64,000 nucleotides of DNA from Candidatus Microgenomates bacterium (GTDB lineage Bacteria > Patescibacteriota > Microgenomatia > UBA8517). A program made the position numbers and the translations under genes. Location: contig JBEKNE010000001.1 in assembly GCA_049523135.1 (NCBI GenBank), positions 651,234 through 715,233 on the forward strand. Direction: 5' to 3'. This document shows, piece by piece, positions 36,686-57,850 of the stretch; position 1 is the first letter of the stretch; each line of letters begins with the position of its first letter. The notes under the pieces were generated by a model that was not told the origin of the DNA, did no database searches, and was given only the letters and a program-made list of their open reading frames with translations.

Positions 36686-36768
36686 TGCCAAGGCCAGGAT
36701 TCGAACCTGGGAAGCCTTACGGCATCAGTTCTACAGACTGACGTAATTGTCCACTCTACCACCTTGGC
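36686..36768 (-). tRNA. tRNA-Tyr (anticodon GTA), long variable arm, no encoded CCA
   Basis: Manual fold: acceptor GCCAAGG/CCTTGGC, anticodon stem TCAGT/ACTGA, loop CTGTAGA, T-arm GGTTCGAATCC. Confidence 0.8.
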
Positions 36769-37373
36769 TAGTTTTTAAGTAAACTTGAAGATATTATACC
36801 AATATCAGTCATAATTTGCCTATGCAACTTCTTATCGGAATATCTAATATGTACAAGCCCAAATGGCATTTTGCCAATTTTCTCTATTTTAAAGTCCTTT
36901 CGGATATAGGGTTTAGAAAATTGCCCTTTGGGTACTTTTAATTTTTTCGACCAAAAATCAATTATTTTATTTACATCCTGATTTAAATAACAATACAAAT
37001 ATATTCTGAGCCTTTTTTCGGTAACTCTATAAATTTCCCTAAGCATTCTAATAAACAAACGAAGCATTTTTTCATCGCTATTCGCAAAATCAACGGTAAA
37101 CTTATTTGCTTTTGATCCTTCAGCCCAATAAAGCATCAAGCCTGCAATAAGAAGTTTTCTTTGATGGTTTGTAAATTTTGCCAATTTATCATAACTTAAA
37201 GAGCCTCTTTCGAATTGAATTTTAAGGGTCTGTGCGGGAGTTCTCCTTTTTATTTTATTTCTCCTCATAAAACTTATTACCCGCCAAACAGAAATATTAT
37301 ATTTCCTGGCTATTTCATTGGAACTTAAACCATTTTTGTTATACAGATCCGAAACAATCATTTTATCAAGCAT
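36768..37373 (-). CDS. DNA-binding protein with N-terminal HTH and a LAGLIDADG-like motif (possible homing-endonuclease-derived protein)
   Basis: HTH LSSNEIARKYNISVWRVISFMRR. Segment LLIAGLMLYWAEGSKANKFTVDF resembles LAGLIDADG plus following beta-strand. Stop codon abuts tRNA-Tyr. Confidence 0.4.
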   Translation of the reverse strand: MLDKMIVSDLYNKNGLSSNEIARKYNISVWRVISFMRRNKIKRRTPAQTLKIQFERGSLSYDKLAKFTNHQRKLLIAGLMLYWAEGSKANKFTVDFANSDEKMLRLFIRMLREIYRVTEKRLRIYLYCYLNQDVNKIIDFWSKKLKVPKGQFSKPYIRKDFKIEKIGKMPFGLVHIRYSDKKLHRQIMTDIGIISSSLLKN

Positions 37374-37461
37374 AGTAGATCAATAATATATTTGCCTTGA
37401 CGAATAATCAATACCCATGTCAATATCAAAATTAGGCTTAGTTTGATATAATTCATATTGC

Positions 37462-37533
37462 GCCGACGTAGCTCAGTGGTAGAGCGATGCTTTTGTAAAG
37501 CAAGGATCGGAGGTCCAAATCCTCCCGTCGGCT
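37462..37533 (+). tRNA. tRNA-Thr (anticodon TGT)
   Basis: Manual fold: acceptor GCCGACG/CGTCGGC, anticodon loop TTTGTAA, T-arm GGAGGTCCAAATCCTCC. Confidence 0.8.
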
Positions 37534-37547
37534 CACGAATAAATTTT

Positions 37548-38588
37548 ATGTGGACATCACTTTTCGATTACAATCTACCAAAAAATCTAATCGCTAACTC
37601 CCCTGCTAATCCCAGAGATAGTTCCAGACTTATGATAATTAACCGAAAAACTGATCAAATTTCCGAATATGTCTTTCGCGATATTACGAATATGTTAGGA
37701 AAAAATGATATCTTGGTTTTAAATAAGACTAAAGTTTTTCCAGCCAGGCTTATTTCCAAAAAAGTAACCGGCGGAAAAGTCGAAATTTTACTTCATAAAA
37801 ATCTGGACACGTATACATGGGAAGCACTAACCAGACCAGGGCTTAAAGCCGAACAAAAAATAGTTGCCGACGGAATTCTGGCGGAAACCATAAAAAGGGA
37901 CGGAGAACTTTCCATTTTGAAATTTAATTTGGATAGAAACAAACTGATCGAAAAACTCCAAAAAATTGGCCTGACTCCCCTTCCTCCTTATATTCATTCA
38001 AACGACTCCGAAAAAGATTTAAGGCATGAATATCAGACGATTTATGCAAAAACGGTCGGTTCCGCAGCCGCCCCGACAGCCGGATTCCATTTCACCAAAG
38101 AGCTTTTGGAAAGATTACAGAAAAAAGGGGTCCAAATCGAATATATTACGCTCCATGTCGGCCTCGGAACCTTTGCCCCCGTCAAAACAAAAACGCTCGA
38201 AGAGTTCAAAATCCACGAAGAGGAATTTTTTGTGGATAATAAAACTATCAATACAATAAAAGAAGCCAAATCCAAAGGCAAAAGAATAATTGCCGTAGGC
38301 ACCACATCTGCCCGTACGTTGGAAACCATCGCTTCAGGTAAGCCCTCCGGCTCAACCAATCTTTTTATTTATCCTCCCTACAAATTCAAAATTGTTGACG
38401 CTCTCATAACTAATTTTCATCTTCCGGAGTCAACCCTTTTAGCCCTAGTTTCGGCGTTTGTTTCCTTCCCAAATACGGATACCAAATTCAAAGATTTTGG
38501 TTCATCTTTAATGGGCAAGGCTTATCGAAAAGCTATTAAAAACAAGTTTCGTTTCTACTCTTTTGGTGATGCCTGCCTGATTATCTGA
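37548..38588 (+). CDS. queA: S-adenosylmethionine:tRNA ribosyltransferase-isomerase. Start moved to MWTSLFDYNLPK
   Basis: FDYxLPxxLIAxxPxxPRDxSRL QueA N-terminal signature. Track ORF 5' extension overlaps tRNA-Thr and is rejected. Confidence 0.85.
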   Translation: MWTSLFDYNLPKNLIANSPANPRDSSRLMIINRKTDQISEYVFRDITNMLGKNDILVLNKTKVFPARLISKKVTGGKVEILLHKNLDTYTWEALTRPGLKAEQKIVADGILAETIKRDGELSILKFNLDRNKLIEKLQKIGLTPLPPYIHSNDSEKDLRHEYQTIYAKTVGSAAAPTAGFHFTKELLERLQKKGVQIEYITLHVGLGTFAPVKTKTLEEFKIHEEEFFVDNKTINTIKEAKSKGKRIIAVGTTSARTLETIASGKPSGSTNLFIYPPYKFKIVDALITNFHLPESTLLALVSAFVSFPNTDTKFKDFGSSLMGKAYRKAIKNKFRFYSFGDACLII

Positions 38589-38606
38589 TATAATTAGCTT
38601 CATCAG

Positions 38607-38681
38607 GCCTGGGTAGCTCAGTGGTAGAGCACGTACTTGGTAAGTACGGGGTCGTGAGTTCAATCCTCACCTCAGGCTCCA
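38607..38681 (+). tRNA. tRNA-Thr (anticodon GGT) with encoded CCA
   Basis: Manual fold: acceptor GCCTGGG/CTCAGGC (one G-U), anticodon stem CGTAC/GTACG, loop TTGGTAA, T-arm GTGAGTTCAATCCTCAC, 3' TCCA. Confidence 0.85.
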
Positions 38682-38686
38682 GAATT

Positions 38687-39280
38687 ATGGAACAACACGA
38701 AATACCGGTTTTTAGAAAATCCGAAAAGCATGTGGGCCCCTATATAAACGCTGTTCTTAATCCACCTATAGGAGAATTCAATAATATGCTTCGCCAAGCC
38801 AAACACTCCATCTTAGAAATTGGCTGTGGAGAAAAACCAAGACTTTCGTGGAAATTGAGTTCTGAAGATTTATGGGTAGGCTGCGATCCTCTCTTAGACA
38901 CCAACAGAGTGCAAATAAAGTCACCTATACATTCTAATAAAGTGATTCTATTCTCCGATATCGCAGCTGATATACCGAAGTTTACACCCGACGTCTTATT
39001 GGCAGTCGCGCCCAATCAAAAAAACATAGCTGAAAATAAAATATTTAATGATGAATTGGAGAATTTTCTGAATCCTCATAAACATCAATTTTTTATAGTG
39101 GCACTAGACACCCGGACAATTGAATCCAGAGGCTACCAGCAAGCCGCATTAACAAAAATTGATAATTGGATGAACGAACATCATTTTAAGAGAGATGATG
39201 AAAATCCGGTTTTAAACAAATTCAGTCCCAACTCGGATGATCTGGGAAATTTAAGCCACCTTATGTGTTTTGCCAGTTAG
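38687..39280 (+). CDS. hypothetical protein, possibly SAM-dependent methyltransferase-like. Start moved to MEQHEIP
   Basis: ILEIGCGEKP resembles methyltransferase motif I. 5' ORF extension overlaps tRNA and is rejected. Confidence 0.35.
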   Translation: MEQHEIPVFRKSEKHVGPYINAVLNPPIGEFNNMLRQAKHSILEIGCGEKPRLSWKLSSEDLWVGCDPLLDTNRVQIKSPIHSNKVILFSDIAADIPKFTPDVLLAVAPNQKNIAENKIFNDELENFLNPHKHQFFIVALDTRTIESRGYQQAALTKIDNWMNEHHFKRDDENPVLNKFSPNSDDLGNLSHLMCFAS

Positions 39281-39325
39281 CTCCGCTTGCCTCTTCACTA
39301 CGCTCCGTGATAAAATATCAGCCAT

Positions 39326-39517
39326 ATGGCAAAAAAAGGCGCAAGAGAAGCTGTTATGTTGGTTTGTTCCGTTTGTAAAAATCAAAATTACATTACTGAA
39401 AGGAACAAAGTTAACATGGAGCTTAAAAACAAAAAGGGCTCAAAATTGGAGATCAAGAAATACTGTAAATTCTGCAGGAAAGTCCAGCTCCATAAGGAAA
39501 CCAGCAAGCTTAAGTAA
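39326..39517 (+). CDS. rpmG: 50S ribosomal protein L33 (zinc-ribbon type)
   Basis: CSVCKNQNYIT...KYCKFCRKVQLHKETSK matches Cys4 L33. Precedes tRNA-Trp/secE/nusG as in canonical synteny. Confidence 0.85.
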   Translation: MAKKGAREAVMLVCSVCKNQNYITERNKVNMELKNKKGSKLEIKKYCKFCRKVQLHKETSKLK

Positions 39518-39646
39518 AAACTTCGAGCACGGGAGAACAAAAATAAATTACTTCAAAAACATCCTTGCAAGGATAAGTAATCTTCATGTTTTTGATTGCG
39601 TATCTTATTTCTGCTCCCCCAGGTCGCATTGTGCTCATACTAACAC

Positions 39647-39877
39647 CTAAACATTAATCTGATTACCGTGGATTTTCGCGTGATTAGGGAAATGTCCCGG
39701 TGCATGGTTGTGTTTCAACTCGTCCACCAACTTAACGGTACCGGCCTTTGTATAAAAACCTGATTTCCCATTTAGGGTATCCAGTACTATATCACCGGGC
39801 TGGGGACCACACGCAGGTCCATTTCCCACACCTAAAAACACAAAACTGCCGTCTTGTTTCAATGTCCAACTGGCCAT
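39647..39877 (-). CDS. hypothetical small protein
   Basis: ORF only (MASWTLKQDGSFVFLGVGNG...). Gly/His-rich. Confidence 0.25.
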   Translation of the reverse strand: MASWTLKQDGSFVFLGVGNGPACGPQPGDIVLDTLNGKSGFYTKAGTVKLVDELKHNHAPGHFPNHAKIHGNQINV

Positions 39878-39984
39878 ATTTGTACGCCTCCACAATGTTA
39901 ATTTGCGACCTATAGTGGACTATATCAAAAAATACGCTATTTTTCAACTTTGAGGCAATCTGGGGTATAATACAAAGGTAATTT

Positions 39985-40055
39985 AGGGGTGTCGGTCAGT
40001 GGTAGGCCGCGAGTCTCCAAAACTTGCAACGTAGGTTCGATTCCTACCACCCCTG
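39985..40055 (+). tRNA. tRNA-Trp (anticodon CCA)
   Basis: Manual fold: acceptor AGGGGTG/CACCCCT, anticodon loop CTCCAAA, T-arm GTAGGTTCGATTCCTAC. TATAAT box about 14 nt upstream. Confidence 0.8.
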
Positions 40056-40064
40056 CAGAGGCAC

Positions 40065-40325
40065 TTACTGACTAGCGTATTTATGAAGAACCGAGGACGC
40101 AAGAGTTTGATAAGGAATCCCCTCTTCAGCTGCTTTAGCTCTTAAACGTGCTATAACTCTTTCGGAAAGTCTAATGTTTATGTTTTTGGTCTTGTTCAGA
40201 GTATTCTTAGCGATTTTTTCATAAAGTTTTTTCGCTTTCTTAAAATCTGAAACTGAGACAAACGTCCCCTTTTCAAAATCTTTCAAAATAGTTCTTTCAT
40301 CTTTTGTTAATTCGTAATATTTCAT
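40065..40325 (-). CDS. brnA: BrnA-type antitoxin (ribbon-helix-helix, COG3514-like)
   Basis: C-terminal ...IRLSERVIARLRAKAAEEGIPYQTLASSVLHKYA typical of BrnA. Overlaps toxin gene by 4 nt. Confidence 0.65.
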   Translation of the reverse strand: MKYYELTKDERTILKDFEKGTFVSVSDFKKAKKLYEKIAKNTLNKTKNINIRLSERVIARLRAKAAEEGIPYQTLASSVLHKYASQ

Positions 40326-40609
40326 TTTTTTCCACCTCCTTTAACTATATATTTTTTAGTTGCCTTTCGGCTTGGAATAATCGTTTTCAAAAACACTTTC
40401 TCCTCATCTTCAACAAAAGGTACTAAATAAACATAGTTGTTAATGTTTAGCACAAACATTTTTTGATTAGGATATTTCTTCTGATTTGGATGCTTAACTA
40501 TATCCAAAAGTCCACCAGATTCTATCGCTATATAAACTTCTTCAAAAGAGATATCCCGTTCAGCCTTAAGCAACCTATTTTTCTCTTTATTCCAATCGTA
40601 ATACTTCAC
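40322..40609 (-). CDS. brnT: BrnT-type ribonuclease toxin (DUF497/COG2929-like)
   Basis: YDWNKEKNRLLKAERDISFEE N-terminus (F-x-WD-x-x-K-x-x-N-x-x-KHG-like pattern), about 95 aa, upstream of RHH antitoxin. Confidence 0.65.
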   Translation of the reverse strand: MKYYDWNKEKNRLLKAERDISFEEVYIAIESGGLLDIVKHPNQKKYPNQKMFVLNINNYVYLVPFVEDEEKVFLKTIIPSRKATKKYIVKGGGKK

Positions 40610-40756: not shown

Positions 40757-41767
40757 TTAAGTCTTAATGATAGGGTCCGCTCCATCCAAATATATCAAAA
40801 TCTTGCTTATACCCCTTAGATCTCTAAGCTTCTCCAGCGAATATGTAACATTATTACGAACCTTATTTTCCGGAATATCATATTTATCCCCGATCTCACT
40901 ATACTTCCAGTGCCTCCCGTCGACTATTCCAATTCTATAAAGAAGCTTATCAATCGAAGAAAGTGAAATAGTTTCGCAAAGGACATCTCTAAGGAAATCT
41001 TTCAACTCTTTCTCCTCCAAAATATCCAAAGCGTCTTTCCCAGGGCCTTCAATACAATCCTCCAATACTTCATCAGGATTATCATCTTTGTTCCTCGGTT
41101 CATTTAACGATTTCTGACGCTTATTCGCCTGAAATGCCGCCCTTAAAGTATTCAATTGGATTCTCGAAAGACCAAGCTTTTTTTCCACTTCCGGAATCTC
41201 TGGAGTACGGGCCAATTTCTGTGTCAAAAACTTTTCGGCTTTCTTATAGTCAATAATTCTTTTGAACGAAGCGGGGGGTATAACGATATGATTCGCATTG
41301 TGGATTGCATTAATCATTTCACGGACGATCCAATATTCTATGTATGTAGAGACGTTGCATCCTTCATCAAGGTCATATTGGGCTAGTCCCTTTATCATTC
41401 CAACTACACCTTCGTTTAATAAATCGACATTGGGTAAATCGCACTTATAAAAAAGGTTATTTTTTTTTGCCAGACTAAATACAAAAAGCAAATTGTGGTT
41501 CACTAGTTCATTGAAAGCCAGATGGGATTCTCTATTTGTAAATCCAATTTTTACCTGTTCCGTGTGGGGATTTATTATTTCAGCTCCGGAAAACATCACC
41601 CGTGCAAGCTCCTTTTGTTCTTCCGCAGGAAGAGCGGGATAATTTTCGGCCTCACGGATCCATTCCTTAACCCCCATTTTGACCAAAGTCGGTTCAGTTT
41701 CTTTCATAAACAGTGAATTATAATACGGGAGAGTCCTATTTCGCCAGTTCGTATCTTTCGGAGGCAA
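40757..41767 (-). CDS. RNA polymerase sigma factor, sigma-70 family (regions 1.2, 2, 3, 4 recognisable). Possibly the principal sigma
   Basis: Region 2.3/2.4 YIEYWIVREMINAI, region 4.2 HTH EIGDKYDIPENKVRNNVTYSLEKLR. Confidence 0.8.
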   Translation of the reverse strand: MPPKDTNWRNRTLPYYNSLFMKETEPTLVKMGVKEWIREAENYPALPAEEQKELARVMFSGAEIINPHTEQVKIGFTNRESHLAFNELVNHNLLFVFSLAKKNNLFYKCDLPNVDLLNEGVVGMIKGLAQYDLDEGCNVSTYIEYWIVREMINAIHNANHIVIPPASFKRIIDYKKAEKFLTQKLARTPEIPEVEKKLGLSRIQLNTLRAAFQANKRQKSLNEPRNKDDNPDEVLEDCIEGPGKDALDILEEKELKDFLRDVLCETISLSSIDKLLYRIGIVDGRHWKYSEIGDKYDIPENKVRNNVTYSLEKLRDLRGISKILIYLDGADPIIKT

Positions 41768-42722
41768 GAGAAATAATTTTACTGATCAGATCTTTATAAC
41801 TCATTCCCGCAACCATTGCCGCACGGGGAAAATAGGAAATCTGATTCATATCAGGATTAATCCCCGGAAGTGTATTTATTTCGATAAAATAAAGAGTCCC
41901 ATCATTACTCAGCCGATAATCAATTCTGGCACAATCTCTGACATCCAAAAGTTTATAAATCTTTTTGGAAACATCCTCTATTTTATCCTTAAGTTTTTCA
42001 TCTATTTTTGCAGGGCAATCATAAGCAGTTTTTAGATCCTTTAACTTGTCTTCATAAAGCCACTTCAGTTCATAACCGGCAATTTTGTTCATTCCAGCAG
42101 GTAGAAAATCGAATTTTTGCTCTATAATTGGAAGAACCTGAATTTCCTTATTCCCAAGCACGCCAACAGTAAACTCACGTCCGTCGATATACTCCTCTAC
42201 CAAGACTTCTGTATCAAGCGCCTCTCTTAGCTCCTTAATCTTTTTGTCCAACTCTTCCTTGTTCCTGACGACACTATTATCCATTATCCCTTTACTTGAA
42301 CCTTCCTTATTCGGCTTCACAATTAATGGGAACGTGATTGAACCGGGAACATCCACTATTTCCGCCCCTTTTATAATTAACTTTGTAAACTCCTTATCAA
42401 GTTTTATTGCATTTGTGGTAGGACCCGAGTGAGTATAAGGAATTCCCAAAACTTCACAGAAAAGAGGAATTTGGCTTTCCCTTGCATCCCCCGTTAATCC
42501 TTCAGCAATATTAAAAACAAGGTCAATTTTCCCTTTCAAAGATTGAAGTGTATCGAAAGCATTTTCATTCGCTTCAACCAGTACCACCTCGTGTCCCAAA
42601 GACTCCAGGGTTTCTTTAATCTGATTGATTGTTTCGGGAGCATCGAACTCCGTATCTTTCTGCTTACTCGGATCCAAAGAAGGATCACTCCTTTTAACAT
42701 TGAAGGTAAAGGCAATTTTCAT
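41736..42722 (-). CDS. D-alanine--D-alanine ligase-family ATP-grasp enzyme (paralog 1)
   Basis: EVLGIPYTHSGP, LIVKPNKEGSSKGI, EEYIDGREFTVGVLG, FIEINTLPG. Ddl-like ATP-grasp motif set. Confidence 0.75.
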   Translation of the reverse strand: MKIAFTFNVKRSDPSLDPSKQKDTEFDAPETINQIKETLESLGHEVVLVEANENAFDTLQSLKGKIDLVFNIAEGLTGDARESQIPLFCEVLGIPYTHSGPTTNAIKLDKEFTKLIIKGAEIVDVPGSITFPLIVKPNKEGSSKGIMDNSVVRNKEELDKKIKELREALDTEVLVEEYIDGREFTVGVLGNKEIQVLPIIEQKFDFLPAGMNKIAGYELKWLYEDKLKDLKTAYDCPAKIDEKLKDKIEDVSKKIYKLLDVRDCARIDYRLSNDGTLYFIEINTLPGINPDMNQISYFPRAAMVAGMSYKDLISKIISLASERYELAK

Positions 42723-42820
42723 CTATGTAGTGTGGTGTGGAAAAAGGGATTGCGATTTTGAGGAGAAAATTACCATTATGAGTTAGATTATATACCCCTC
42801 CGAAAATTTGTTAACAAGTA

Positions 42821-43501
42821 CTATTTCCTGATCATCCCCAACTTCTTAGGCCAGGTTTCGCTTTTCGGAGTTATGACAAACATTACCCGGTTATCTATGA
42901 GGCTTCTACCGCCAATAATATTCTCATCCCACCATCTTTTCTCAAAAAGCCTGATGGGAAATCTCCTGTCCACCCCGTTGTAGCGGAATATGCCATTGAA
43001 ATACGGATCCGCGATTCTTACATAGCCTGTCTTTTTATCTACACCCGTGACCACTCCGTAATGCCCGCTGTCCCCATCTTCGTTTTCATAGAAAACTCCC
43101 TGCCACTCAACCCCAACGGGAGATTTAAACGTATGCACCGCTCTCCAAAGGTCATGGATGGTAGCGTCGCGCTTTTCCCAAAAATAATATTCTTTCTTTC
43201 CCAAAAATGAGGTTGCACGGGTCAAGTCTTTGACATTTAGACCGTATTCTCTGACTTTGGTTTGTGCCCTGAGCGATTTAATCATACTTTTCTGGCTTAC
43301 CTTAACGCCAAAGAAAGAAAAAAGCATTTCTTCTACAGCCGGACCGCAGGCATAGATTGAAACTTGTTTTACCCTACGCATTTCAGGGAAGGGCTTGCCG
43401 AAGAGCTTATCCGCAAGTTCCCATAAACGTTTCAGAAATCTTCTCGCAATCGGGTTTTTTTCAAGTTCCATAATTTGCCCAATTATACGGGCGGAAGCCA
43501 A
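42821..43501 (-). CDS. papain-fold cysteine peptidase-like protein (C39/BtrH_N-like)
   Basis: Candidate catalytic Cys in SIYACGPAVEEMLFSFFG and His in DSGHYGVVTGVD, ordering as in C39-like peptidases. Flanked by two ATP-grasp genes. Confidence 0.45.
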   Translation of the reverse strand: MASARIIGQIMELEKNPIARRFLKRLWELADKLFGKPFPEMRRVKQVSIYACGPAVEEMLFSFFGVKVSQKSMIKSLRAQTKVREYGLNVKDLTRATSFLGKKEYYFWEKRDATIHDLWRAVHTFKSPVGVEWQGVFYENEDGDSGHYGVVTGVDKKTGYVRIADPYFNGIFRYNGVDRRFPIRLFEKRWWDENIIGGRSLIDNRVMFVITPKSETWPKKLGMIRK

Positions 43502-43507
43502 GTTTGT

Positions 43508-44620
43508 CTACTGCAATCCTTTGGTGTACTTGGAAAGGAGGCTGGAGACTATCTCCGGAAACTCAACTCCGTACATTGCCATTACCTCCGTCATGGGAAG
43601 TCCCATATCCGGACCAAAGGCTGTATTGGGGTTGCTGTCGGTAAAGTACGGGGTCGTTGTTTCTTCATCTACCCTAATGTCAAACTTTGCGTAATCGTTA
43701 TGCTGAAGTCCGCCAAAAGCTCTTACGGCAAGCTTGGTAATCTCATAGCGGAGATCATCCTTAACGGGAATATATTTATAAGCCTTAGAATCGTCATAAG
43801 ACTCAAAACTTGTAAAGAAATATTTACCGTCAGCCTTTTTTCTAAAGACCTTTTGTCCCATAAATACGTGCCTTTTGCTTCCGTCGTCAAAGACCACAAC
43901 CGTAATTTCAGGCCCGCCTATAAACTTCTCAACAACAACCGGAACGTGGTATGTTGAAATCATTTTATTGGACCGAAGCATTGCGGCTCTGAAGGTCTCT
44001 TTAACAGCATGATTATTTATTCCGACGCTTCCCCCACCCTCGTTAAGTTTAACGATAAGAGGAAGCCCCAAGTCTTCATCAATTGTCGTTCCGGCACGTC
44101 TGATAAATTGGAACGGAGGAGTCGGAATGTCATAGGCCATAAGAAGTCTCTTGGTTAAATTTCTGTTATTGCCAATGATAAGACCTTCCATTCCGGCTCC
44201 GGTATAAGGAATTCCGGCCAGTTCCAGTGCCGCCGGAACCGAAGGCTGGAGTTGATCGCGGCCTTTTAAGGTATCCACCAAATTAACAACCAGGTCGGGT
44301 TTATCAACAAGCAAATTCGTATAAAAATACTGATCTCCTGGAAGAGTCCTAACCTGAATTCCAAGTTTTCGAATTTCTTCCGAAACCTCAACCGCTCTCT
44401 CCTCTACTTCAACTTCCGCCTCATAAGCGGACTGGGTGGCAAAGTGCTCCCTCTGGACACTGCTGTAAGCAACTACCACCAACCTAAACTTTTTTAAACC
44501 GTCCTTATCAACAGCTAATTTAATTTTTCCTTTGGGGGATGTTTTTTTTACCAGGGCTTCATCTTCGCTTTTTGAAGTGGGCATATACTCATAGTACCAA
44601 ATAATCCTTCTCTGATACAA
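43508..44620 (-). CDS. D-alanine--D-alanine ligase-family ATP-grasp enzyme (paralog 2, N-terminally extended). True start may be Met at 44584
   Basis: ELAGIPYTGAG, LIVKLNEGGGSVGI, EKFIGGPEITVVVF, ATP-grasp C-domain. Confidence 0.75.
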   Translation of the reverse strand: MYQRRIIWYYEYMPTSKSEDEALVKKTSPKGKIKLAVDKDGLKKFRLVVVAYSSVQREHFATQSAYEAEVEVEERAVEVSEEIRKLGIQVRTLPGDQYFYTNLLVDKPDLVVNLVDTLKGRDQLQPSVPAALELAGIPYTGAGMEGLIIGNNRNLTKRLLMAYDIPTPPFQFIRRAGTTIDEDLGLPLIVKLNEGGGSVGINNHAVKETFRAAMLRSNKMISTYHVPVVVEKFIGGPEITVVVFDDGSKRHVFMGQKVFRKKADGKYFFTSFESYDDSKAYKYIPVKDDLRYEITKLAVRAFGGLQHNDYAKFDIRVDEETTTPYFTDSNPNTAFGPDMGLPMTEVMAMYGVEFPEIVSSLLSKYTKGLQ

Positions 44621-44629
44621 TACGCTTAA

Positions 44630-45283
44630 ATGACTAATTCAAAAATTGGAATGCTTTTGGTTATAACCGGCGCTTCCGGAACCGGAAAAGATTCTGTTGC
44701 AAATGAGATCCTGAAACATCCTGCTCTTGCAGAATTAAATTTAAAAAGGTTGATTACCTGTGCCGACAGGCCACCTCGCCCGGGAGAAACCGAAGGAGTC
44801 GATTATTATTTTGTGACACCAAAGGAGCTTGATGAAATGTATAAAAAGGAACAGCTAGTGGAAAAACCCCAAACCACAGGAACATCAAGAAAAGGAACTC
44901 CAAGAAAAGAATTTACCGCAATTTTGAAAGGAGAAAAAAGACTTTGGAGAATTGATCCATTCCTGGCATCAAAGGTCGCCACTGGGATTTTTTTTGAAGA
45001 GCAATTTGAAGGTAGAGAGAAAGAAGATCTCAAATCACTAACTACAGTTGTATGTGTTGCCTCCCCCAAAGAACAAATCGAGGGTAGACGGAAATTGCGC
45101 GACAGGGAAAAATATAACACAAAAGAATACAAATTAAGGGATCTTCAGGAAAAACCAAATCTGGATGTTTTACAAAAAGAGAGTTTACTTGTGCAAAATC
45201 TCAATGGACAACTGGGGGAAACTGTAAAAGAGGTTGCAAACATAATACTTAAAAATTATGCCAAAGGTAAAGAAAGAGGCTAA
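44630..45283 (+). CDS. gmk: guanylate kinase
   Basis: P-loop ITGASGTGKDS, CADRPPRPGETEGVDYYFV (TTRxPRxGExDGxDYxFV) motif. Confidence 0.8.
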   Translation: MTNSKIGMLLVITGASGTGKDSVANEILKHPALAELNLKRLITCADRPPRPGETEGVDYYFVTPKELDEMYKKEQLVEKPQTTGTSRKGTPRKEFTAILKGEKRLWRIDPFLASKVATGIFFEEQFEGREKEDLKSLTTVVCVASPKEQIEGRRKLRDREKYNTKEYKLRDLQEKPNLDVLQKESLLVQNLNGQLGETVKEVANIILKNYAKGKERG

Positions 45284-45692
45284 AGTTTTGGTCGGTGGAT
45301 GTTTTGATATCCTCCACTTCGGCCATATCAGTTTTTTAAAAAAGGCCAAGTCTTTAGGAAACTATCTGGTGGTTGCTTTGGAATCAGACAAAAATGTTAA
45401 AAGGCTCAAAGGAACCGATCGTCCGATTCATTCCCAATCCCAAAGACATGAGATACTTATATCTCTAGAATTTGTAGATGAAGTAATAAATCTGCCTGAC
45501 AATATGAGTGATACAGATTATTTGGAGCTGGTTAAAAACATCAGACCGGCTATTATCGCGGTAACTCAAGGAGATCCAATTCTTGCCAAGAAACAAAAAC
45601 AGGCAAAAGCGGTCAGAGCCAAAGTTGTCGAAATTGCAAATATAAAAGTTCCTTCAACCTCCAAAATTGCAAAACTCCTAAAGCTGGAATAA
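45258..45692 (+). CDS. cytidylyltransferase-like nucleotidyltransferase (HldE domain II / TagD family)
   Basis: GGCFDILHFGHISFL (H-x-G-H), SDKNVKRLKGTDRPI, C-terminal ISTS-like motif. Confidence 0.65.
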   Translation: MPKVKKEAKVLVGGCFDILHFGHISFLKKAKSLGNYLVVALESDKNVKRLKGTDRPIHSQSQRHEILISLEFVDEVINLPDNMSDTDYLELVKNIRPAIIAVTQGDPILAKKQKQAKAVRAKVVEIANIKVPSTSKIAKLLKLE

Positions 45693-47997: not shown

Positions 47998-48646
47998 TCC
48001 AAGTTTCGACAAATTGCTTCCTGTGCTGCCGGGTTGAACCATATTTTTTGATTGCTTCCTGATGTTGTTTCGTGCCGTAACCCTTGTTTTTCGCCCACTT
48101 GTACTTTCTGTATTTCGGGTTTTTATTTAGGTTGGTCATTAGGCTGTCTCTATAAACTTTGGCAATAATTGAGGCTGCTGCAATTGAGATAGATTTCGTG
48201 TCTCCTTTAATAATCGGCTTCTGATTTTTCCGTCTCAAACCTTTAACGTAAGGAATATAAAAAGCATCTATAAGTAAATAGTCAATTCTTTCATTGCAGT
48301 TTTTAATAGCTTTACGAAAAGCTATCTCAGTAGCCTTTTTAATTCCAAATTTATTAATTTCCCCAACACCCGCTTTCCCAATTCCATAGCAGTAAGCATT
48401 TCTTTTTATCCAAAATGAAGCTAATTCCCTTTGTCTGGGAGTTAATTGTTTTGAATCATTAATAATTATTTTATTTTGTAATTTATTGAAAATTGTAAAT
48501 TGATAATTGTTAATCGGAACGAAGGCAACAGCCGCAGCGACCACCGGTCCTGCAAAACATCCTCTTCCAACTTCATCAACTCCGGCAATAAATTTGTAAC
48601 CTTGTTTTTGAAGTTTTTTCTCAAAAGAAAAATCAGGAAGAGTCAT
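47966..48646 (-). CDS. rnhB: ribonuclease HII
   Basis: IAGVDEVGRGCFAGPVV catalytic DEVGRG motif. Confidence 0.9.
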   Translation of the reverse strand: MTLPDFSFEKKLQKQGYKFIAGVDEVGRGCFAGPVVAAAVAFVPINNYQFTIFNKLQNKIIINDSKQLTPRQRELASFWIKRNAYCYGIGKAGVGEINKFGIKKATEIAFRKAIKNCNERIDYLLIDAFYIPYVKGLRRKNQKPIIKGDTKSISIAAASIIAKVYRDSLMTNLNKNPKYRKYKWAKNKGYGTKQHQEAIKKYGSTRQHRKQFVETWINNSSSSQAR

Positions 48647-49116
48647 TTGTGTTCGGGGCTGGGCCAGTGATACAGTATAGCGTCTCGCAAATCTTTATTC
48701 TTTTTTTCAATCTCCGCCTTGGATGAACTTGCAAGATTAAGTGCTTTTTTCACTGCCGCATTCCTTGATAACAAATCATTTGCTATCTTGTCAGCACTAA
48801 CACCTTGTGCCATAAGAGCCGGCATAAGTCTATCTGCCACCTCAGAAGGCTGTTCTGAAGGATATCTTGATCTGACATCTTTCAAAAGTTCTATTTCCTT
48901 AGCCTGACCTTCAGTTCCTTCAAATTCATCAGGAAAAGCCCTGGTAACAACAGAAACCAAGTCATCAAGAATCTCGGCGGGGACAAGGGTATCCTTTACT
49001 GGATTCCGAAATCGAGCGTCGGGTAAATTACCACCCTGGGAATATATTAAAATTTCCCCCTTTCTATTGGTTGTAACAATTGGTTTTCCAAAGGGTGGTC
49101 TTTCTTTGCTCTCCAT
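48643..49116 (-). CDS. hypothetical protein
   Basis: ORF coupled to rnhB (4-nt overlap). No motif recognised. Confidence 0.4.
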   Translation of the reverse strand: MESKERPPFGKPIVTTNRKGEILIYSQGGNLPDARFRNPVKDTLVPAEILDDLVSVVTRAFPDEFEGTEGQAKEIELLKDVRSRYPSEQPSEVADRLMPALMAQGVSADKIANDLLSRNAAVKKALNLASSSKAEIEKKNKDLRDAILYHWPSPEHK

Positions 49117-53768: not shown

Positions 53769-55610
53769 TTATTGTTCTAAACCGGAAGAAAATAGCGATT
53801 TTAGGATATCTTTGGTGGCATCATACTTCTTCCCCTTTTCAACTTCCCAATGCAAATCATAACCCGGAGCACCGTTTATCTCTATCACGAAAAAGCGACA
53901 ATGGGCATCGTGTATATTTGGAGAAATTATATCTACCCCACAAAATCTCAAACCTAAAGCCTTTGTCGCTTTAATCGCTATTTGAGAATATTTCAAATCA
54001 AAATGTTCAACGTTCTCAACAGTACCTCCTGTGTGGGCATTTGCATTCATGCGTAATGTAATTTTCTCGCCTTTGGCCGGAACACTATTGTATCCCAAGA
54101 CTTGTTTTGTAAGCATTCTCTCGACTTCATAATTTAATATCAACGGTTCTATCCTCCCGTTATTATATTTCTCTATCAAATCAATTATTGTCAAATTTCC
54201 ATCGCCAACAACGGAAGGTAAAACTCTACGTGCTACTGCTAGTACCCTTCCATCTAAAACAAGAAAACGATAATCCTCCCCTTCCACATATTCCTCAATT
54301 AATACTGATTTATATTTCTCCCTGACTCTATTAAATGTTTCCTTAAGCTCATCAACATTCTCAAGTTTTGCTGCCACAAATTTTCCGGACGATGCGGTAT
54401 CGGGTTTTATTACTAAAGGAAAAGAAATTTTTTTCGTTTTTAGTGATTGCAGGACTTCCTCCCAGGTGCCAGCTAGAATCCCCGCTGGTGTTGGTATACC
54501 GCACTTTCTCAAAATCTCTTTCGTCAAATTTTTCCTCTTGGTCAACTTGGTTGCAACCGTCGAATTCAAAGAAAAGAGATTCTTAAATGTAAAAATAGTT
54601 TTTCCATTTTTTGAAATTTCATAAACTCTTTTATCCGCAGGGTATTCATGCACAAAATATCCCAGTTTTGCCGCATCTTTAGCAAAATCGTCCATCAGTG
54701 TTGTAGATCTGGGTTTATCGGTAATCAAAAATTTGATAATCTCTCTCTCAACATTCAACCCGGTGTCCTCTTTAATAGAATCCCATTTGGGTGCTGAGTT
54801 TACCTCAAGTATAAAAAGATTTCCGTTTTCGTCTTCCAGAATATCAACTCCAGCAACATCAATTGAAAGAGCATTTACCGCTCTTTCAGCCAATATTGAA
54901 TATTTGTGGGGTACCTTTTTATACGACATTTTTACAGGACCCTCTTTACCAAAATGGTCCTTCCATCTAGTAGGTCTAACAATTGCAGCCATTGCTTTGC
55001 CGCCAATTACAAGAACTCTAACTCTTATACTTGCTTTGATAAATTCTTGCGCGAGAAATCTTTCACCTAATATCTCCCGAATTGTCAGATCTTCAATCAG
55101 TCCATCTAATTGCTTTTTATTCTCCGATAACCATACGGCACGCCCCCTTTTACCATTGGTACCTTTAATAACAAAGGGGAAACCAAAAATTTTTGGTGCC
55201 TGTTTCCCAATCTTTTTCAAAGACATAAACAATGTCCTTGGAACAGGAATGCCATTTTCAAATAAAAGTTTTGTCTCAAGACCTTTAGCTAGTGGCAATC
55301 GGATAAATAGGGACTTTTGATACATTCCGTCAACAACTTTTACTCCGTTTTTTCTGGCATAATCGGCAACTATCGACGCATCTTCAAAATGCTTACTTAC
55401 AACTCTAAAGTAAATTACACCGAAAGAAGCAATGTCCTTACCTTTAATTAAAATTACAGGAGCAGCAGATGTTTTATTAAGGTCATATTCCAAATCCAAA
55501 AATGATGCTGTAGTCATATCCAGCCCCATCACTTTACCCTCTCTGGAAAACGCGGTGAGATGATTTACTTTTCCACCAGTGATAATTAATATTTTCTTAT
55601 TATTTGTCAT
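53769..55610 (-). CDS. tandem double ATP-grasp protein (two RimK/cyanophycin-synthetase-N-like ATP-grasp modules in one 613-aa polypeptide)
   Basis: Module 1: FPFVIKGTNGKRGRAVWL, ILEVNSAPKW. Module 2: FPLVIKPDTASSGKFV, EEYVEGEDYRFLVLDGRV, FFVIEINGAPG. Confidence 0.7.
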   Translation of the reverse strand: MTNNKKILIITGGKVNHLTAFSREGKVMGLDMTTASFLDLEYDLNKTSAAPVILIKGKDIASFGVIYFRVVSKHFEDASIVADYARKNGVKVVDGMYQKSLFIRLPLAKGLETKLLFENGIPVPRTLFMSLKKIGKQAPKIFGFPFVIKGTNGKRGRAVWLSENKKQLDGLIEDLTIREILGERFLAQEFIKASIRVRVLVIGGKAMAAIVRPTRWKDHFGKEGPVKMSYKKVPHKYSILAERAVNALSIDVAGVDILEDENGNLFILEVNSAPKWDSIKEDTGLNVEREIIKFLITDKPRSTTLMDDFAKDAAKLGYFVHEYPADKRVYEISKNGKTIFTFKNLFSLNSTVATKLTKRKNLTKEILRKCGIPTPAGILAGTWEEVLQSLKTKKISFPLVIKPDTASSGKFVAAKLENVDELKETFNRVREKYKSVLIEEYVEGEDYRFLVLDGRVLAVARRVLPSVVGDGNLTIIDLIEKYNNGRIEPLILNYEVERMLTKQVLGYNSVPAKGEKITLRMNANAHTGGTVENVEHFDLKYSQIAIKATKALGLRFCGVDIISPNIHDAHCRFFVIEINGAPGYDLHWEVEKGKKYDATKDILKSLFSSGLEQ

Positions 55611-55612
55611 TC

Positions 55613-56914: not shown

Positions 56915-56920
56915 ATAATT

Positions 56921-57850
56921 TTAACCTTTGATGAGTTTTCTAAACCTGTAGAATTCCATAACTCGAAGTCCTGTATATTTACCAAGGATGAGATCAAGGG
57001 CTGCCATTAAAACGAGAGAAATTTCAGGGTTCAGAAGTACATACTTTTGAAGCGGCTGAAAAGTCAAAAACAAGTATGAAACAAGCGACAGAATTAAAGT
57101 TTCAAAAGTTAAGTTCAAAGCCGTTTTGACACTTTTGCCAAGCTGAACTCTTGTAAAGTCCTCCGCCAGAAGGATTAGGATTAGAACCGCAAAAATGGAA
57201 ACGTTAGCAAGAGCCGAGAAACTAAGTACGGGAGCCAAGAATAAAATGCCTAAAACCCCAACCACAACAGCCCAAAGAATAAATGACATTCTGGGAAGGT
57301 ACTGAAGCCTGATCTTCAGCCTTCGGAGAATCATACGCACAAGCGTCGAAACGGTAACAATTACCAGGAAAAGTCCAATTCCGACAACCGGCCCTGTTGC
57401 CACAAACACAACCGACAAAGCGGCAGGGAGGAAAATTCCGAATCCTCTAATTCCTATCACATTACGCGAAAATGCTATGACAAAAGTTATGATAGGCAAA
57501 AGGAGCAAAAGAACAATTGTATTGGCAGGTACCCCTGAGGCTACCGCGCCACGGATCGCATACTTAACGGGGTTAAACGGCCAAACCGGGCCCAAAGTCT
57601 GATTTTTCAAAAGTGACTCCAGTGGACCCAGAGATTCTGTGCTCTTCTGAGTGATATCGATAGGTGCAGCAACAGGTGTAGGAGTTAGAGTCACAATGGG
57701 AGTTGGAGTCGGGGTTGGGGTTTGGGCTCTTCCCAAAGCCAAAGACGGCCTTACTAGCACCAATCCCAAAACCACAAAAAGTATTAAAAATATTTTTCTC
57801 ATGGAAAAAGTTTTCTCGAAAGTAAGGCTATTATACCATAAATGTCTCAA
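56921..57850 (-). CDS. polytopic membrane protein (signal/TM, Pro/Thr linker, about 7 TM). Candidate partner of ATP-grasp system (7TM_transglut-like, no transglutaminase domain seen)
   Basis: Hydropathy pattern. 6-nt gap to ATP-grasp/protease gene. Confidence 0.45.
   Translation of the reverse strand: MRHLWYNSLTFEKTFSMRKIFLILFVVLGLVLVRPSLALGRAQTPTPTPTPIVTLTPTPVAAPIDITQKSTESLGPLESLLKNQTLGPVWPFNPVKYAIRGAVASGVPANTIVLLLLLPIITFVIAFSRNVIGIRGFGIFLPAALSVVFVATGPVVGIGLFLVIVTVSTLVRMILRRLKIRLQYLPRMSFILWAVVVGVLGILFLAPVLSFSALANVSIFAVLILILLAEDFTRVQLGKSVKTALNLTFETLILSLVSYLFLTFQPLQKYVLLNPEISLVLMAALDLILGKYTGLRVMEFYRFRKLIKG

Follow-up and report, generated by a model that had tools for sequence, protein, structure and literature searches.

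Why would a bacterium keep the gene for a ligase of the D-Ala-D-Ala ligase (Ddl) type directly next to the gene for a papain-like peptidase, and on what would such a pair act? The question is raised by four genes on the minus strand of a 64-kb stretch of DNA, referred to here as the window. A first-pass annotation had read them as two ATP-grasp ligases bracketing a papain/C39-like peptidase, followed by a sigma-70 factor. All four genes hold up, as do their domain assignments, and the starts of ligase A, the peptidase and the sigma factor were set by homologs and by the source metagenome's own gene calls. The locus comprises the following features:

43508-44584, minus strand: ligase A, 358 aa from M13; the longest ORF extends to 44620
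42821-43471, minus strand: C39-like peptidase, 216 aa from M11; the longest ORF extends to 43501
41736-42722, minus strand: ligase B, 328 aa, a second Ddl-type ATP-grasp ligase, accessory to the pair
40757-41707, minus strand: sigma-70 family gene, 316 aa from M21; regions 2, 3 and 4 detected by Pfam
43482-43510, minus strand: promoter-like site in the spacer between ligase A and the peptidase, TAGACA-17-TATAAT, 11 of 12 consensus matches
42787-42814, minus strand: promoter-like site in the spacer between the peptidase and ligase B, TTAACA-16-TATAAT, 11 of 12 consensus matches

The spacers measure 36 nt between ligase A and the peptidase and 98 nt between the peptidase and ligase B. A 32-nt overlap described between the sigma and ligase genes turns out to be an artefact of taking the longest ORF: the ATG at 41707 leaves a 28-nt gap to ligase B, and the sigma gene call of locus L089 also begins 28 nt past the ligase B stop. 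Since promoter-like sites lie upstream of both the peptidase and ligase B, a single four-gene transcript is not required. The one at 43482-43510 is a candidate internal promoter; the count of such sites in the region shows no excess over shuffled expectation. GC content is even across the window.

What is conserved among relatives is smaller than the unit of ligase, peptidase, ligase and sigma factor that had been proposed. In 78 of 80 species-representative loci, spanning Microgenomates (Woese-, Shapiro-, Gottesman-, Roizman- and Amesbacteria), WWE3 and Chloroflexota, the peptidase gene is directly preceded by that of ligase A on the same strand, and this order recurs in L001-L006, L087-L091 and L094-L096. 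Ligase B, taken for a fixed member, sits beside the pair in only 10 of the 80, plus L087, L088 and L089. None of the 80 has a homolog of the sigma factor, which is an unrelated neighbour outside the conserved module. Across loci the ORFs of the pair are closely spaced or overlapping, and the two genes are probably translationally coupled; on one contig they are fused in frame, an arrangement not seen in that contig's three nearest relatives. ORF clustering of the representative loci revealed no third universal partner, and no small ORF of at least 45 aa is conserved near the pair in the 80 loci. Neither an ABC transporter nor a RiPP precursor nor a carrier protein is conserved with it, and neither the two ligases nor the peptidase matched anything in PADLOC. 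Very likely, ligase A and the peptidase work together on one substrate. The amide 'synthesis and trimming' suggested at the outset stands as the best general description, and we regard the pair as an uncharacterised variant on the known theme of an amidoligase with a papain-type peptidase.

Is ligase A simply a Ddl, as the JGI annotation calls both ligases? It matches Pfam Dala_Dala_lig_C (2.8e-18), and in the PDB its top neighbours are without exception Ddl, with roughly 20% identity. Against the NCBIfam Ddl models it scores at most 102 bits where 243 bits are required (NF002378), and ligase B reaches 178.5 bits, so that the initial view of both as something other than a standard Ddl is upheld. 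The claim that they share ATP-grasp motifs holds only approximately, with GIPYTG in A versus GIPYTH in B and KLNEGGGSVG versus KPNKEGSSKG. Compared with E. coli DdlB (reference sequence confirmed over positions 69-305 by a retrieved alignment), ligase A retains K191, E231, E238, D314, D328, N330 and E69, the equivalent of E15, in the numbering of its 370-aa ORF. Across 77 orthologs the ATP/Mg2+ residues are invariant and the D-Ala-specific positions invariantly different: S150 is replaced by G197, R255 by K312, E270 by D328 and G276 by Ala, and S281/L282 are absent. The codons were verified on the DNA; the predicted structure is of moderate quality (pLDDT 65), and the pocket arguments rest on the alignment.

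Ligase A homologs share 70-91% identity. Between the Shapirobacteria L036 and L043 the identity is 84% for ligase A, 65% for the peptidase, 59% for ddl and 50% for a murF-like gene; between the window and Shapirobacteria it is 67% for ligase A and 51-53% for NusG. Ligase A is conserved better than NusG or the canonical Ddl of the same genomes. Conservation at this level is more in keeping with an enzyme that has a macromolecular partner than with a typical one for small molecules, and in this respect favours the modification of proteins, weighed below.

The assignment of ligase A as a Ddl was rejected, given its rebuilt D-Ala pocket and the canonical ddl alongside it in L036 and L043. The question of a separate canonical Ddl, raised by the first-pass annotation, thereby has an answer for these related Shapirobacteria, where it scores 334-345 bits and where ddl (on the divergent strand), alr, the murF-like gene and then ligase A are adjacent. 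The 64-kb window contains no canonical ddl, alr or murF.

Ligase B looks different (Pfam 3.6e-43). It keeps the equivalents of E15, K97, K144, S150, K215, R255, D257, E270, N272, G276 and S281 of E. coli DdlB; 6 extra residues lengthen its omega-loop, which contains an invariant K220-W221, with Trp in the place of Tyr216, and a 4-residue insert precedes the S281 equivalent. An NCBI protein with 100% identity to it bears just the name 'ATP-grasp domain-containing protein', and PGAP makes no Ddl call there. Most relatives lack ligase B at the locus, including the complete chromosomes L011 and L021, and orthologs, where found, sit beside ligase A and the peptidase and not in the mur/fts cluster. 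Judged by its residues, ligase B is a near-complete Ddl-type enzyme, an accessory that was probably added in the sub-clade of the window.

The peptidase had been called a 226-aa papain/C39-like protein with a Cys/His pair. Fold and catalytic set are borne out, and only the length changes, to 216 aa: the papain/C39 fold is confidently predicted and the Cys, His and Asp are invariant among homologs. The catalytic codons lie at 43364-43366 (Q46), 43346-43348 (C52), 43061-43063 (H147) and 43007-43009 (D165), and just before the catalytic His runs an acidic loop, YENEDGDSGHY, with a median net charge of -6. Fold neighbours include C39 domains, UFM1/ubiquitin-type clippases, papain-like CdiA toxins and CtaG; there is no sequence-level relative in the PDB and no Pfam match to the BtrH_N, Phytochelatin, CHAP or GspS families or to PF11814 (DUF3335). 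No TM-like segments were found in the peptidase or in ligase A. With its catalytic set complete, the protein is a cysteine peptidase or transacylase of C39-like papain fold, soluble and stand-alone. Its family is small and distinct, with 408 representative clusters among 1.84 billion proteins. Some relatives are fused, in both domain orders, to a GNAT of the RimJ/RimL type (Acetyltransf_3), and one of these has ligase A immediately upstream; such fusions would also fit action on protein N-termini.

Where, then, does the pair act? Its neighbourhood gives a hint. The system had been set apart from peptidoglycan synthesis, but the pair is flanked by envelope genes in independent lineages: besides the ddl, alr and murF-like genes of Shapirobacteria, a class A PBP (PBP1A) follows the peptidase in Gottesmanbacteria (3-nt gap, same strand), a PAP2 gene directly precedes ligase A (5-nt gap, same strand), an LCP protein gene directly follows the peptidase on the same strand, and M23-LysM, CapA/PGA_cap and RmlD genes occur near the pair in some loci. 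In many Chloroflexota and WWE3 loci the neighbours are ClpB, a P-type ATPase, a histidine kinase, an E1 dehydrogenase, PPDK, a HAD hydrolase or IS605, and in Woesebacteria the pair lies among ribosomal-protein and NusG genes. The Woesebacteria contexts largely reflect common synteny, so that these loci are not independent observations; the proposed link to GDP-deoxyhexose genes likewise dissolves into synteny specific to this lineage. The recurrence of envelope genes in independent lineages leads us to connect the pair, tentatively, with cell-envelope precursor chemistry.

Our preferred reading, with a probability of about 0.45, is that ligase A and the peptidase work in the cytoplasm as a couple that ligates and cleaves or transfers, with a peptide precursor of the cell envelope as its substrate. 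A substrate among the precursors of the envelope or of peptidoglycan has slightly less than even odds; that the exact chemistry is as outlined here is unlikely. By homology to Ddl, ligase A with ATP/Mg2+ would convert the carboxylate of a small amino acid to an acyl-phosphate, holding its ammonium group with the retained E15-equivalent Glu. The invariant rebuilding of the D-Ala2 pocket points to an attacking amine other than D-Ala; the likeliest acceptor may be an amine on a larger, cationic cytoplasmic envelope precursor such as a peptidoglycan stem-peptide intermediate. The peptidase, with Cys52, His147, Asp165 and Gln46 as oxyanion residue, would form a thioester on the same or a neighbouring amide, which could then be hydrolysed (editing or erasing) or transferred (transpeptidation), while its acidic loop might hold either the ligase or the cationic portion of the substrate. 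Ligase B, where present, would make a D-Ala-D-X-type dipeptide with second-residue specificity altered through the Trp for Tyr216. The sigma factor and the GDP-sugar genes would be neighbours outside the module.

Other substrates need to be weighed. The pair might run a modification cycle at the C- or N-termini of proteins or peptides, the peptidase cutting a cellular protein, for instance behind a small-residue motif, or taking off a terminal residue, and ligase A adding an amino acid to the end thus exposed, in the manner of RimK on ribosomal protein S6 or of tubulin tyrosine ligase (TTL) with vasohibin. Conservation at or above NusG is typical of enzymes docking on conserved macromolecules, clippases and C39 domains are among the fold neighbours of the peptidase, the GNAT family fused to it is known for ribosomal-protein N-terminal acetylation, and the Woesebacteria locus sits amid ribosomal-protein and NusG genes. 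This cycle is nevertheless unlikely: the pair has no conserved companion gene that could encode a substrate, the ribosomal surroundings reflect lineage synteny and are gone in Shapirobacteria and Chloroflexota, and the polarity would be opposite, since RimK and TTL activate a protein carboxylate whereas the E15-type Glu of ligase A would bind a free amino acid as acyl donor. The envelope genes recurring in several independent lineages speak against it, and also against a somewhat less probable couple in which ligase A would produce a metabolite with an amide linkage, such as a polyamine or thiol peptide conjugated to an amino acid, for the peptidase to hydrolyse or transpeptidate. Models would be glutathionylspermidine/trypanothione synthetase-amidase and glutathione synthetase with phytochelatin synthase. 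The acidic loop by the catalytic His suits a polycationic substrate, the module is autonomous, without an obligatory partner, and a synthetase with a papain-like amidase has a precedent in enzymes with 'conflicting synthetic and hydrolytic activities' (PMC10318531); yet the Phytochelatin, CHAP and GspS families are unmatched, no thiol or polyamine biosynthesis genes lie beside the pair in the loci inspected, and such extreme conservation of ligase A is unusual for enzymes of secondary or redox metabolism.

It is improbable that one ligase is the housekeeping D-Ala-D-Ala ligase, especially ligase B in the trio-bearing Woesebacteria, and the arrangement meaningless. Ligase B retains nearly all Ddl catalytic and substrate residues, the window lacks ddl, alr and murF, and JGI labels both ligases Ddl; but ligase A co-exists with a canonical ddl, and for ligase B the low score, the invariant Trp, the longer omega-loop, the missing PGAP call, its absence from most relatives' loci and its place at the pair locus all argue otherwise. 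With no precursor, transporter or carrier protein conserved beside it, the pair is unlikely to belong to a RiPP or thiotemplated pathway. A thiotemplated, NRPS-independent route of the closthioamide (CtaD/CtaG) or butirosin (BtrJ/BtrH) type, with the ATP-grasp enzyme loading a carrier and a transacylase moving the chain, is very improbable: 95% of CtaD homologs have a nearby PCP gene (PMC7183216), whereas the pair has neither this nor a conserved decarboxylase or other tailoring gene, BtrH_N is unmatched, CPR genomes are small, and housekeeping-level conservation with syntenic chromosomal placement across phyla is unlike biosynthetic gene clusters. We give slightly less credence still to graspetide-like RiPP or bacteriocin maturation with a C39 leader peptidase, or to an anti-phage or conflict system. 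The classical role of C39 domains is to cut double-glycine leaders, ATP-grasp ligases occur in graspetide clusters, a graspetide survey names C39 (PMC8939145), and CdiA toxins are among the fold matches. Against this, the spacers of just 36 and 98 nt and the 80 loci offer no precursor ORF, the peptidase is soluble and stand-alone, ligase A belongs to the Ddl branch, PADLOC matches are lacking for the two ligases and the peptidase, and GC content is uniform.

How does the pair compare with known systems? The complete three-domain Ddl architecture is present in both ligases, Ddl enzymes account for all of their closest solved structures, and both keep the ATP/Mg2+ ligands and the E15-equivalent Glu, ligase B also S150, K215, R255, E270 and G276. 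Unlike Ddl and the Van-type D-Ala-D-Lac/D-Ser ligases, they fall below every NCBIfam Ddl and Van cutoff, with S150G, R255K, E270D, G276A and the loss of S281/L282 in ligase A and the altered omega-loop in ligase B; no vanH- or vanX-type genes adjoin the pair. The C39 domains of PCAT1, ComA and LahT differ from the peptidase, which at about 216 aa has roughly 80 extra residues and neither fusion or linkage to an ABC transporter nor a GG-leader precursor. To Alr0975 (phytochelatin-synthase-like, C83) and PeiR (pseudomurein endoisopeptidase, C71) it shows 16-18% identity, without Pfam membership, and we know of no pairing of either with an ATP-grasp ligase.

Other systems couple both activities. 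CtaD/CtaG and BtrJ/BtrH also combine an ATP-grasp enzyme with a C39/BtrH-like papain-fold enzyme and acyl transfer through a Cys-thioester (PMC7183216), and CtaG is a structural neighbour of the peptidase; they depend on carrier proteins within biosynthetic clusters, unlike the housekeeping-type pair. In the glutathionylspermidine/trypanothione enzymes an ATP-dependent amide synthetase and a papain-superfamily cysteine amidase address the same bond (PMC10318531), there as a CHAP amidase fused to a GspS-type synthetase, here as a C39-like protein beside a Ddl-type ATP-grasp ligase. Finally, Iyer, Abhiman, Burroughs and Aravind (2009) predicted amidoligase-peptidase systems, for example DUF3335/C39-like domains fused to GNAT. 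As far as the citing paper (PMC10318531) describes them, they differ in that our peptidase lacks a PF11814 match and our ligase is of the Ddl branch, not RimK-like, and what they share with our pair is the general theme of an amide-forming enzyme, ATP-grasp or GNAT, whose gene stands with, or is fused to, that of a C39-like papain peptidase.

Four co-directional open reading frames occupy the minus strand of the window at 40757-44620, as the first-pass annotation had described, and its domain calls are upheld by profile searches for all four proteins. Two encode ATP-grasp ligases of the Ddl branch (ligases A and B), one a soluble C39-like cysteine peptidase, and one a sigma-70 family factor. 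Homolog alignments and the gene calls of the source metagenome revise the starts of ligase A, the peptidase and the sigma gene; the longest ORFs had given 370 aa for ligase A and 226 aa for the peptidase.

Features of the window locus and its surroundings
44630-45692, plus strand: guanylate-kinase-like gene and RfaE-domain-II-like nucleotidyltransferase gene, divergent upstream neighbours of ligase A
43508-44584, minus strand: ligase A, 358 aa from M13
43482-43510, minus strand: promoter-like hexamer pair 5' of the peptidase, 11/12 matches (consensus match only)
42821-43471, minus strand: peptidase, 216 aa from M11
42787-42814, minus strand: promoter-like hexamer pair 5' of ligase B, 11/12 matches (consensus match only)
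41736-42722, minus strand: ligase B, 328 aa
40757-41707, minus strand: sigma gene, 316 aa from M21
40065-40609, minus strand: BrnT-like toxin (95 aa) and BrnA/CopG-like antitoxin (86 aa), directly downstream of the sigma gene
36686-36768 (minus strand), 37462-37533, 38607-38678 and 39985-40055 (plus strand): four tRNA genes within 36686-40055
53769-57850, minus strand: second amidoligase cluster, unrelated to ligase A and the peptidase and about 10 kb from them

With the revised starts, the 32-nt overlap reported between the sigma gene and ligase B proves to be an artefact and gives way to a 28-nt gap. Spacers of 36 nt and 98 nt separate ligase A from the peptidase and the peptidase from ligase B. 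GC content is even along the whole window and thus gives no indication of a foreign island. A motif, CCCGTAT(T)ATAAT, is common to the 25 nt 5' of the revised peptidase and sigma ATGs (43472-43495 and 41708-41730, minus strand), where a perfect TATAAT precedes the ATG by 10-15 nt and a Shine-Dalgarno sequence is not evident, a layout that suggests very short leaders or a common promoter type.

Several further features surround the locus. The BrnT-like and BrnA-like ORFs overlap by 4 nt, and this couple also lies downstream of the sigma gene in the related locus L089. The starts of a QueA-like ORF (37458) and of the ORF at 38621-39280 are over-extended, since they fall inside or beside tRNA genes. 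The second amidoligase cluster encodes a protein of 613 aa that combines a RimK-like and a Ddl_C-like ATP-grasp module, an ATPgrasp_ST protein of 433 aa whose C-terminal region is Zn_protease-like, and a membrane protein of the 7TM_transglut type (309 aa); divergent to the cluster is an ABC transporter at 57966-59696. Between the RNase HII and NusG genes lies a 157-aa ORF (48643-49116, minus strand) that matches no Pfam or NCBIfam model and is kept in place in three related loci, L017, L020 and L023 (30-36% identity).

Which of the four genes belong together? Scanning a peptidase profile against one genome per species yielded 80 loci, spread over Woese-, Shapiro-, Gottesman-, Roizman- and Amesbacteria, WWE3, a few other Patescibacteria and many Chloroflexota, the latter mostly Anaerolineales. 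In 78 of them a ligase A ortholog lies directly upstream of the peptidase on the same strand, at a distance of a few tens of bases or with an overlap; of the remaining two, L075 is a contig edge and L077 holds a divergent paralog. Metagenome contigs found by way of either gene show this arrangement as well. Ligase A and the peptidase are therefore a tightly linked two-gene module of broad but patchy distribution, restricted to Patescibacteria and Chloroflexota, and are probably translationally coupled. All-against-all clustering of the 5,848 ORFs of the 80 loci returned no third universal partner, further ORF 'families' being antisense shadow ORFs, and neither a conserved small ORF (at least 45 aa) nor a conserved transporter accompanies the pair in these loci.

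The larger unit that had been proposed, two ligases and a peptidase together with the sigma factor, does not hold at this scale. Ligase B follows the pair in 10/80 loci, including L034 and L035, where the peptidase is only 41% identical to that of the window, and on large contigs its orthologs are again found at the pair locus. One of these orthologs is set apart from the pair by an IS1595 element plus toxin and antitoxin genes. The sigma gene, whose regions 2, 3 and 4 match weakly (30.7, 22.7 and 18.8 bits), has a homolog in none of the 80 loci; with its overlap artefactual, it is ruled out as a member.

Some loci deviate in other ways. On L088 (4503-6876) an IS1595-family transposase and small genes (DUF433, DUF3467-like) lie between the peptidase and ligase B, so the trio is physically separable. 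In one Patescibacteria locus (L055, 8633-9553) the pair is followed by another ATP-grasp gene with no more than 28% identity to ligase B, which hints that a second ligase was recruited more than once. L039 (7367-8603) carries two peptidase copies in tandem after ligase A, at 35-36% identity to the window's peptidase. The paralog of L077 (1966-4000) retains HCGPA, PVGVEWQG, GHY, DP and RWW and has no acidic loop; it is preceded by a 448-aa multi-pass membrane (MFS-like) protein in place of ligase A, the sole clear instance of the peptidase without it. Taxon names in the locus table need care: many of the locus-bearing TPA metagenome-assembled genomes are titled 'uncultured Gammaproteobacteria' or 'uncultured Pseudomonadales' (L007, L008, L013, L014, L025 and others) and L084 is titled 'Bacteroidota', and such records with a Patescibacteria-type locus look mislabelled.

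The peptidase is a genuine enzyme of the papain/C39 fold with a complete catalytic set, as the first reading of the locus had supposed. The 226-aa ORF product matches Peptidase_C39_2 and Peptidase_C39 above the Pfam cutoffs. All 38 homologs have C52, H147 and D165, and nearly all have Q46, which gives the full Gln/Cys/His/Asp set with the Q-x5-C spacing of C39. An AlphaFold model built from the same alignment is confident (pLDDT 88.4, pTM 0.87), and its Foldseek matches are the C39 domains of PCAT1, LahT and ComA, the phytochelatin-synthase-like Alr0975, papain-like CdiA toxins, and CtaG. A sequence search of the PDB returned no meaningful relative. The protein has no TM-like segment, which points to a stand-alone cytoplasmic enzyme with no transporter domain. 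Directly before the catalytic His lies an acidic loop of variable length and conserved composition, whose net charge has a median of -6 across 77 loci; for a charge comparison with the N-terminal tail of ligase A, the motif anchor was found in only 36 ligase A sequences. A search of 1.84 billion proteins at E <= 1e-3 recovered 408 representative clusters, which makes this a small family.

Both ligases belong to the Ddl branch, and neither is a canonical Ddl, in line with the original proposal; the paralogy claimed for them is distant only (25% identity). Both match Dala_Dala_lig_C in Pfam (E 2.8e-18 for ligase A, 3.6e-43 for ligase B), have the three-domain Ddl ATP-grasp organization, and find Ddl without exception as nearest solved structures in PDB and Foldseek searches. 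On the NCBIfam Ddl model NF002378 (cutoff 243 bits) ligase A reaches 102 and ligase B 178.5 bits, and on TIGR01205 (cutoff 245.65 bits) 95.4 and 161.7 bits, against 334-345 bits on the NCBIfam Ddl model for the true Ddl genes found in related Shapirobacteria. Functional residues were mapped in the orthologs of ligase A (77) and ligase B (11) in E. coli DdlB numbering, on a reference sequence of which positions 69-305 agree with the computed alignment. Neither ligase has the complete set of Ddl residues E15, S150, K215, Y216, R255, S281 and L282. Ligase A retains the ATP/Mg2+ ligands and the E15-equivalent Glu; S150G, R255K, E270D and G276A are invariant, K215 is unaligned and S281/L282 are unconserved. 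Ligase B retains nearly all functional residues and loses L282; its omega-loop is longer by six residues and bears an invariant Lys-Trp, the Trp replacing Tyr216 (Y216W), and a 4-residue insert precedes the S281 equivalent. The predicted structure of ligase A is moderate (pLDDT 65), and the fold search returns just Ddl and does not inform specificity.

No canonical ddl, alr or murF lies within the 64-kb window of the ~780-kb genome. In Shapirobacteria, ligase A occurs alongside a canonical ddl in the same genomes, which excludes ligase A, and only ligase A, as the housekeeping ddl. A Van-type glycopeptide-resistance cluster is likewise rejected: Van models give 23-112 bits against cutoffs of 495-775, and neither vanH nor vanX lies beside the ligases. 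The trio is neighboured in the window by the gmk-like gene, a cytidylyltransferase, the sigma factor and BrnT/BrnA.

Ligase A is unusually constrained. Between two Shapirobacteria (L036 and L043) it is 84% identical, against 65% for the peptidase, 59% for canonical Ddl, 58% for an Hsp70-like protein and 50% for a MurF-like ligase. From the window to Shapirobacteria the values are 67% for ligase A, 35-37% for the peptidase and 51-53% for NusG. The pair shows conservation at housekeeping level and is among the most strongly constrained non-informational gene sets of Microgenomates.

In lineages other than Woesebacteria, envelope genes repeatedly adjoin the pair. Woesebacteria loci share synteny: the pair is flanked at one end by NusG/SecE, RNase HII, S21, GDP-sugar genes, an MFS transporter and a cytidylyltransferase and at the other by QueA, an M50 peptidase, fmt and def, so that these loci do not count as independent observations. 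The recurrent MFS gene matches generic MFS only, and an AmpG-type muropeptide permease was rejected. In Shapirobacteria a canonical ddl (divergent strand), an alanine racemase and a MurF-like ligase lie directly upstream of the pair, the last in four loci.

Wall-gene clusters next to the pair in Shapirobacteria
L036, 1071-5925, ddl divergent: ddl, alanine racemase, MurF-like ligase, ligase A, peptidase
L043, 4883-8657, ddl divergent: ddl, MurF-like ligase, ligase A, peptidase

The MurF-like ligase is short (395-399 aa; 150-156 bits on TIGR01143, cutoff 288.6), and an Hsp70/YegD-like gene stands upstream of both clusters. In Gottesmanbacteria a class A PBP follows the pair after 3 nt; on two soil contigs a PAP2 phosphatase ends 5 nt upstream of it, and on a third an LCP protein lies downstream. 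M23-LysM, CapA/PGA_cap and RmlD are found near the pair in other loci, and the window itself carries PBP2, a Wzy_C-TPR protein and UppS. At further loci the genes beside the pair bear no relation to the envelope: ClpB, a P-type ATPase, a histidine kinase, an E1 dehydrogenase, PPDK and IS605. With wall genes repeatedly adjoining the pair outside Woesebacteria, the distance from peptidoglycan biology that had been assumed is probably wrong. The GDP-deoxyhexose genes named as neighbours are plausible but inexact assignments, the 'gmd' scoring 345.7 bits against an equivalog cutoff of 415; the guanylate-kinase-like and RfaE-domain-II-like neighbours of ligase A likewise reach 72.7 (cutoff 160) and 104 bits (cutoff 181.5).

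What could such a pair do? Judged by their residues, ligase A and the peptidase are both catalytically intact. Ligase A seems to preserve the acyl-phosphate chemistry of Ddl together with the Glu holding the ammonium of the donor amino acid, with a rebuilt acceptor pocket. It would couple a small amino acid with an amine that is not D-Ala, and the peptidase would form a thioester on the same or an adjacent amide, then hydrolyse or transfer. The idea of a ligase with a processing peptidase, apart from canonical Ddl, thus survives, without the extent of the unit or the role of the sigma factor once attached to it. A cell-envelope precursor peptide is the most likely substrate, with a probability of about 0.45, since wall genes recur next to the pair, which has also recruited a second, near-canonical Ddl-type ligase. 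If so, the pair would reveal a lineage-specific envelope chemistry. We would place rather less trust in the narrower proposal that the two proteins form a heteromeric enzyme for an unrecognised cytoplasmic step of wall-precursor synthesis or editing in Microgenomates/WWE3 and Anaerolineae-type Chloroflexota, which seems unlikely at present. Such an enzyme could use ATP to attach an amino acid to the stem peptide and couple this with thiol-mediated proofreading or transpeptidation, or could be a hydrolase-fed ligase as in MurT/GatD or CarA/CarB; if true, it would be a new determinant of peptidoglycan chemotype in largely uncultured lineages.

Two other readings are viable, and protein fusions bear on one of them. 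On one soil contig ligase A and the peptidase are fused in frame; the three nearest relatives have separate overlapping ORFs, so an indel is possible and the fusion supports the pair only weakly. Five relatives of the peptidase (P0390, P0396, P0399, P0408 and P0413) are fused to one GNAT family (Acetyltransf_3, RimJ/RimL-like), N-terminal in some and C-terminal in others. The only such fusion with upstream sequence (L091, 3-2089) has a ligase A ortholog directly upstream at 74% identity, which rules out the GNAT as a substitute for the ligase and makes it an additional, third amide-forming activity. These RimJ/L-type fusions, together with the extreme conservation of ligase A, would fit a cycle that modifies protein termini. 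A small-molecule synthetase/amidase couple, by analogy with glutathionylspermidine synthetase/amidase or with glutathione synthetase and phytochelatin synthase, may also be considered; it is favoured by the full-length similarity of the peptidase to Alr0975 and by the acidic loop, and a precedent exists for such a couple (PMC10318531). The envelope precursor nevertheless remains our preferred substrate.

Strong constraint and sharing with Chloroflexota suggest that the pair probably has a central physiological role in these little-understood bacteria, most of them uncultured. That role is experimentally reachable because Anaerolineae include cultured members; a Longilinea MAG (L079) carries the pair. 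Public annotation names ligase A "D-alanine-D-alanine ligase" and the peptidase "bacteriocin exporter peptidase domain" or "hypothetical", labels that are probably wrong and through which too many Ddl/Van-like "resistance" genes are counted in CPR genomes (compare PMC8651080). To an NCBI protein 100% identical to ligase B, PGAP gives no more specific name than 'ATP-grasp domain-containing protein'.

How does the pair relate to known systems? C39 bacteriocin-processing peptidases are domains of, or linked to, ABC exporters and act with GG-leader precursors, whereas the peptidase here is soluble and stand-alone, with neither. Graspetide and other RiPP clusters place a precursor gene beside the ATP-grasp gene, for which the 36- and 98-nt spacers of the window are too short, and without precursor or transporter a RiPP reading is unlikely. 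The thiotemplated CtaD/CtaG and BtrJ/BtrH pathways need a carrier protein, and 95% of CtaD loci carry a PCP (PMC7183216); the pair has no conserved small ORF, and with no carrier protein present a pathway of this type is unlikely. Pfam searches of the peptidase at E <= 0.01 gave no match to BtrH_N or PF11814, nor to phytochelatin synthase PF05023 (C83), a family whose likeness to the peptidase is at the level of the fold only. An anti-phage defence system is unlikely, PADLOC models matching neither the pair nor ligase B and the sigma factor only weakly (MzaA-like). The CHAP and GspS-type domains of glutathionylspermidine synthetase/amidase are undetected here, and the resemblance lies in the functional logic alone. 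Amidoligases of the ATP-grasp or GNAT type, encoded with a papain-like peptidase or transacylase, are a general theme known both from prediction and from experiment (Iyer et al. 2009, as cited in PMC10318531; PMC7183216; structures of GspS and trypanothione synthetase-amidase cited in PMC10318531). The PDB and the literature on CPR or Chloroflexi yielded no characterised member of this exact pairing, which Iyer et al. 2009 may mention. What distinguishes the pair is the combination of a Ddl-branch ligase with a rebuilt acceptor pocket and a distinct small family of C39_2-like peptidases, along with its restriction to two phyla and its housekeeping-level conservation.
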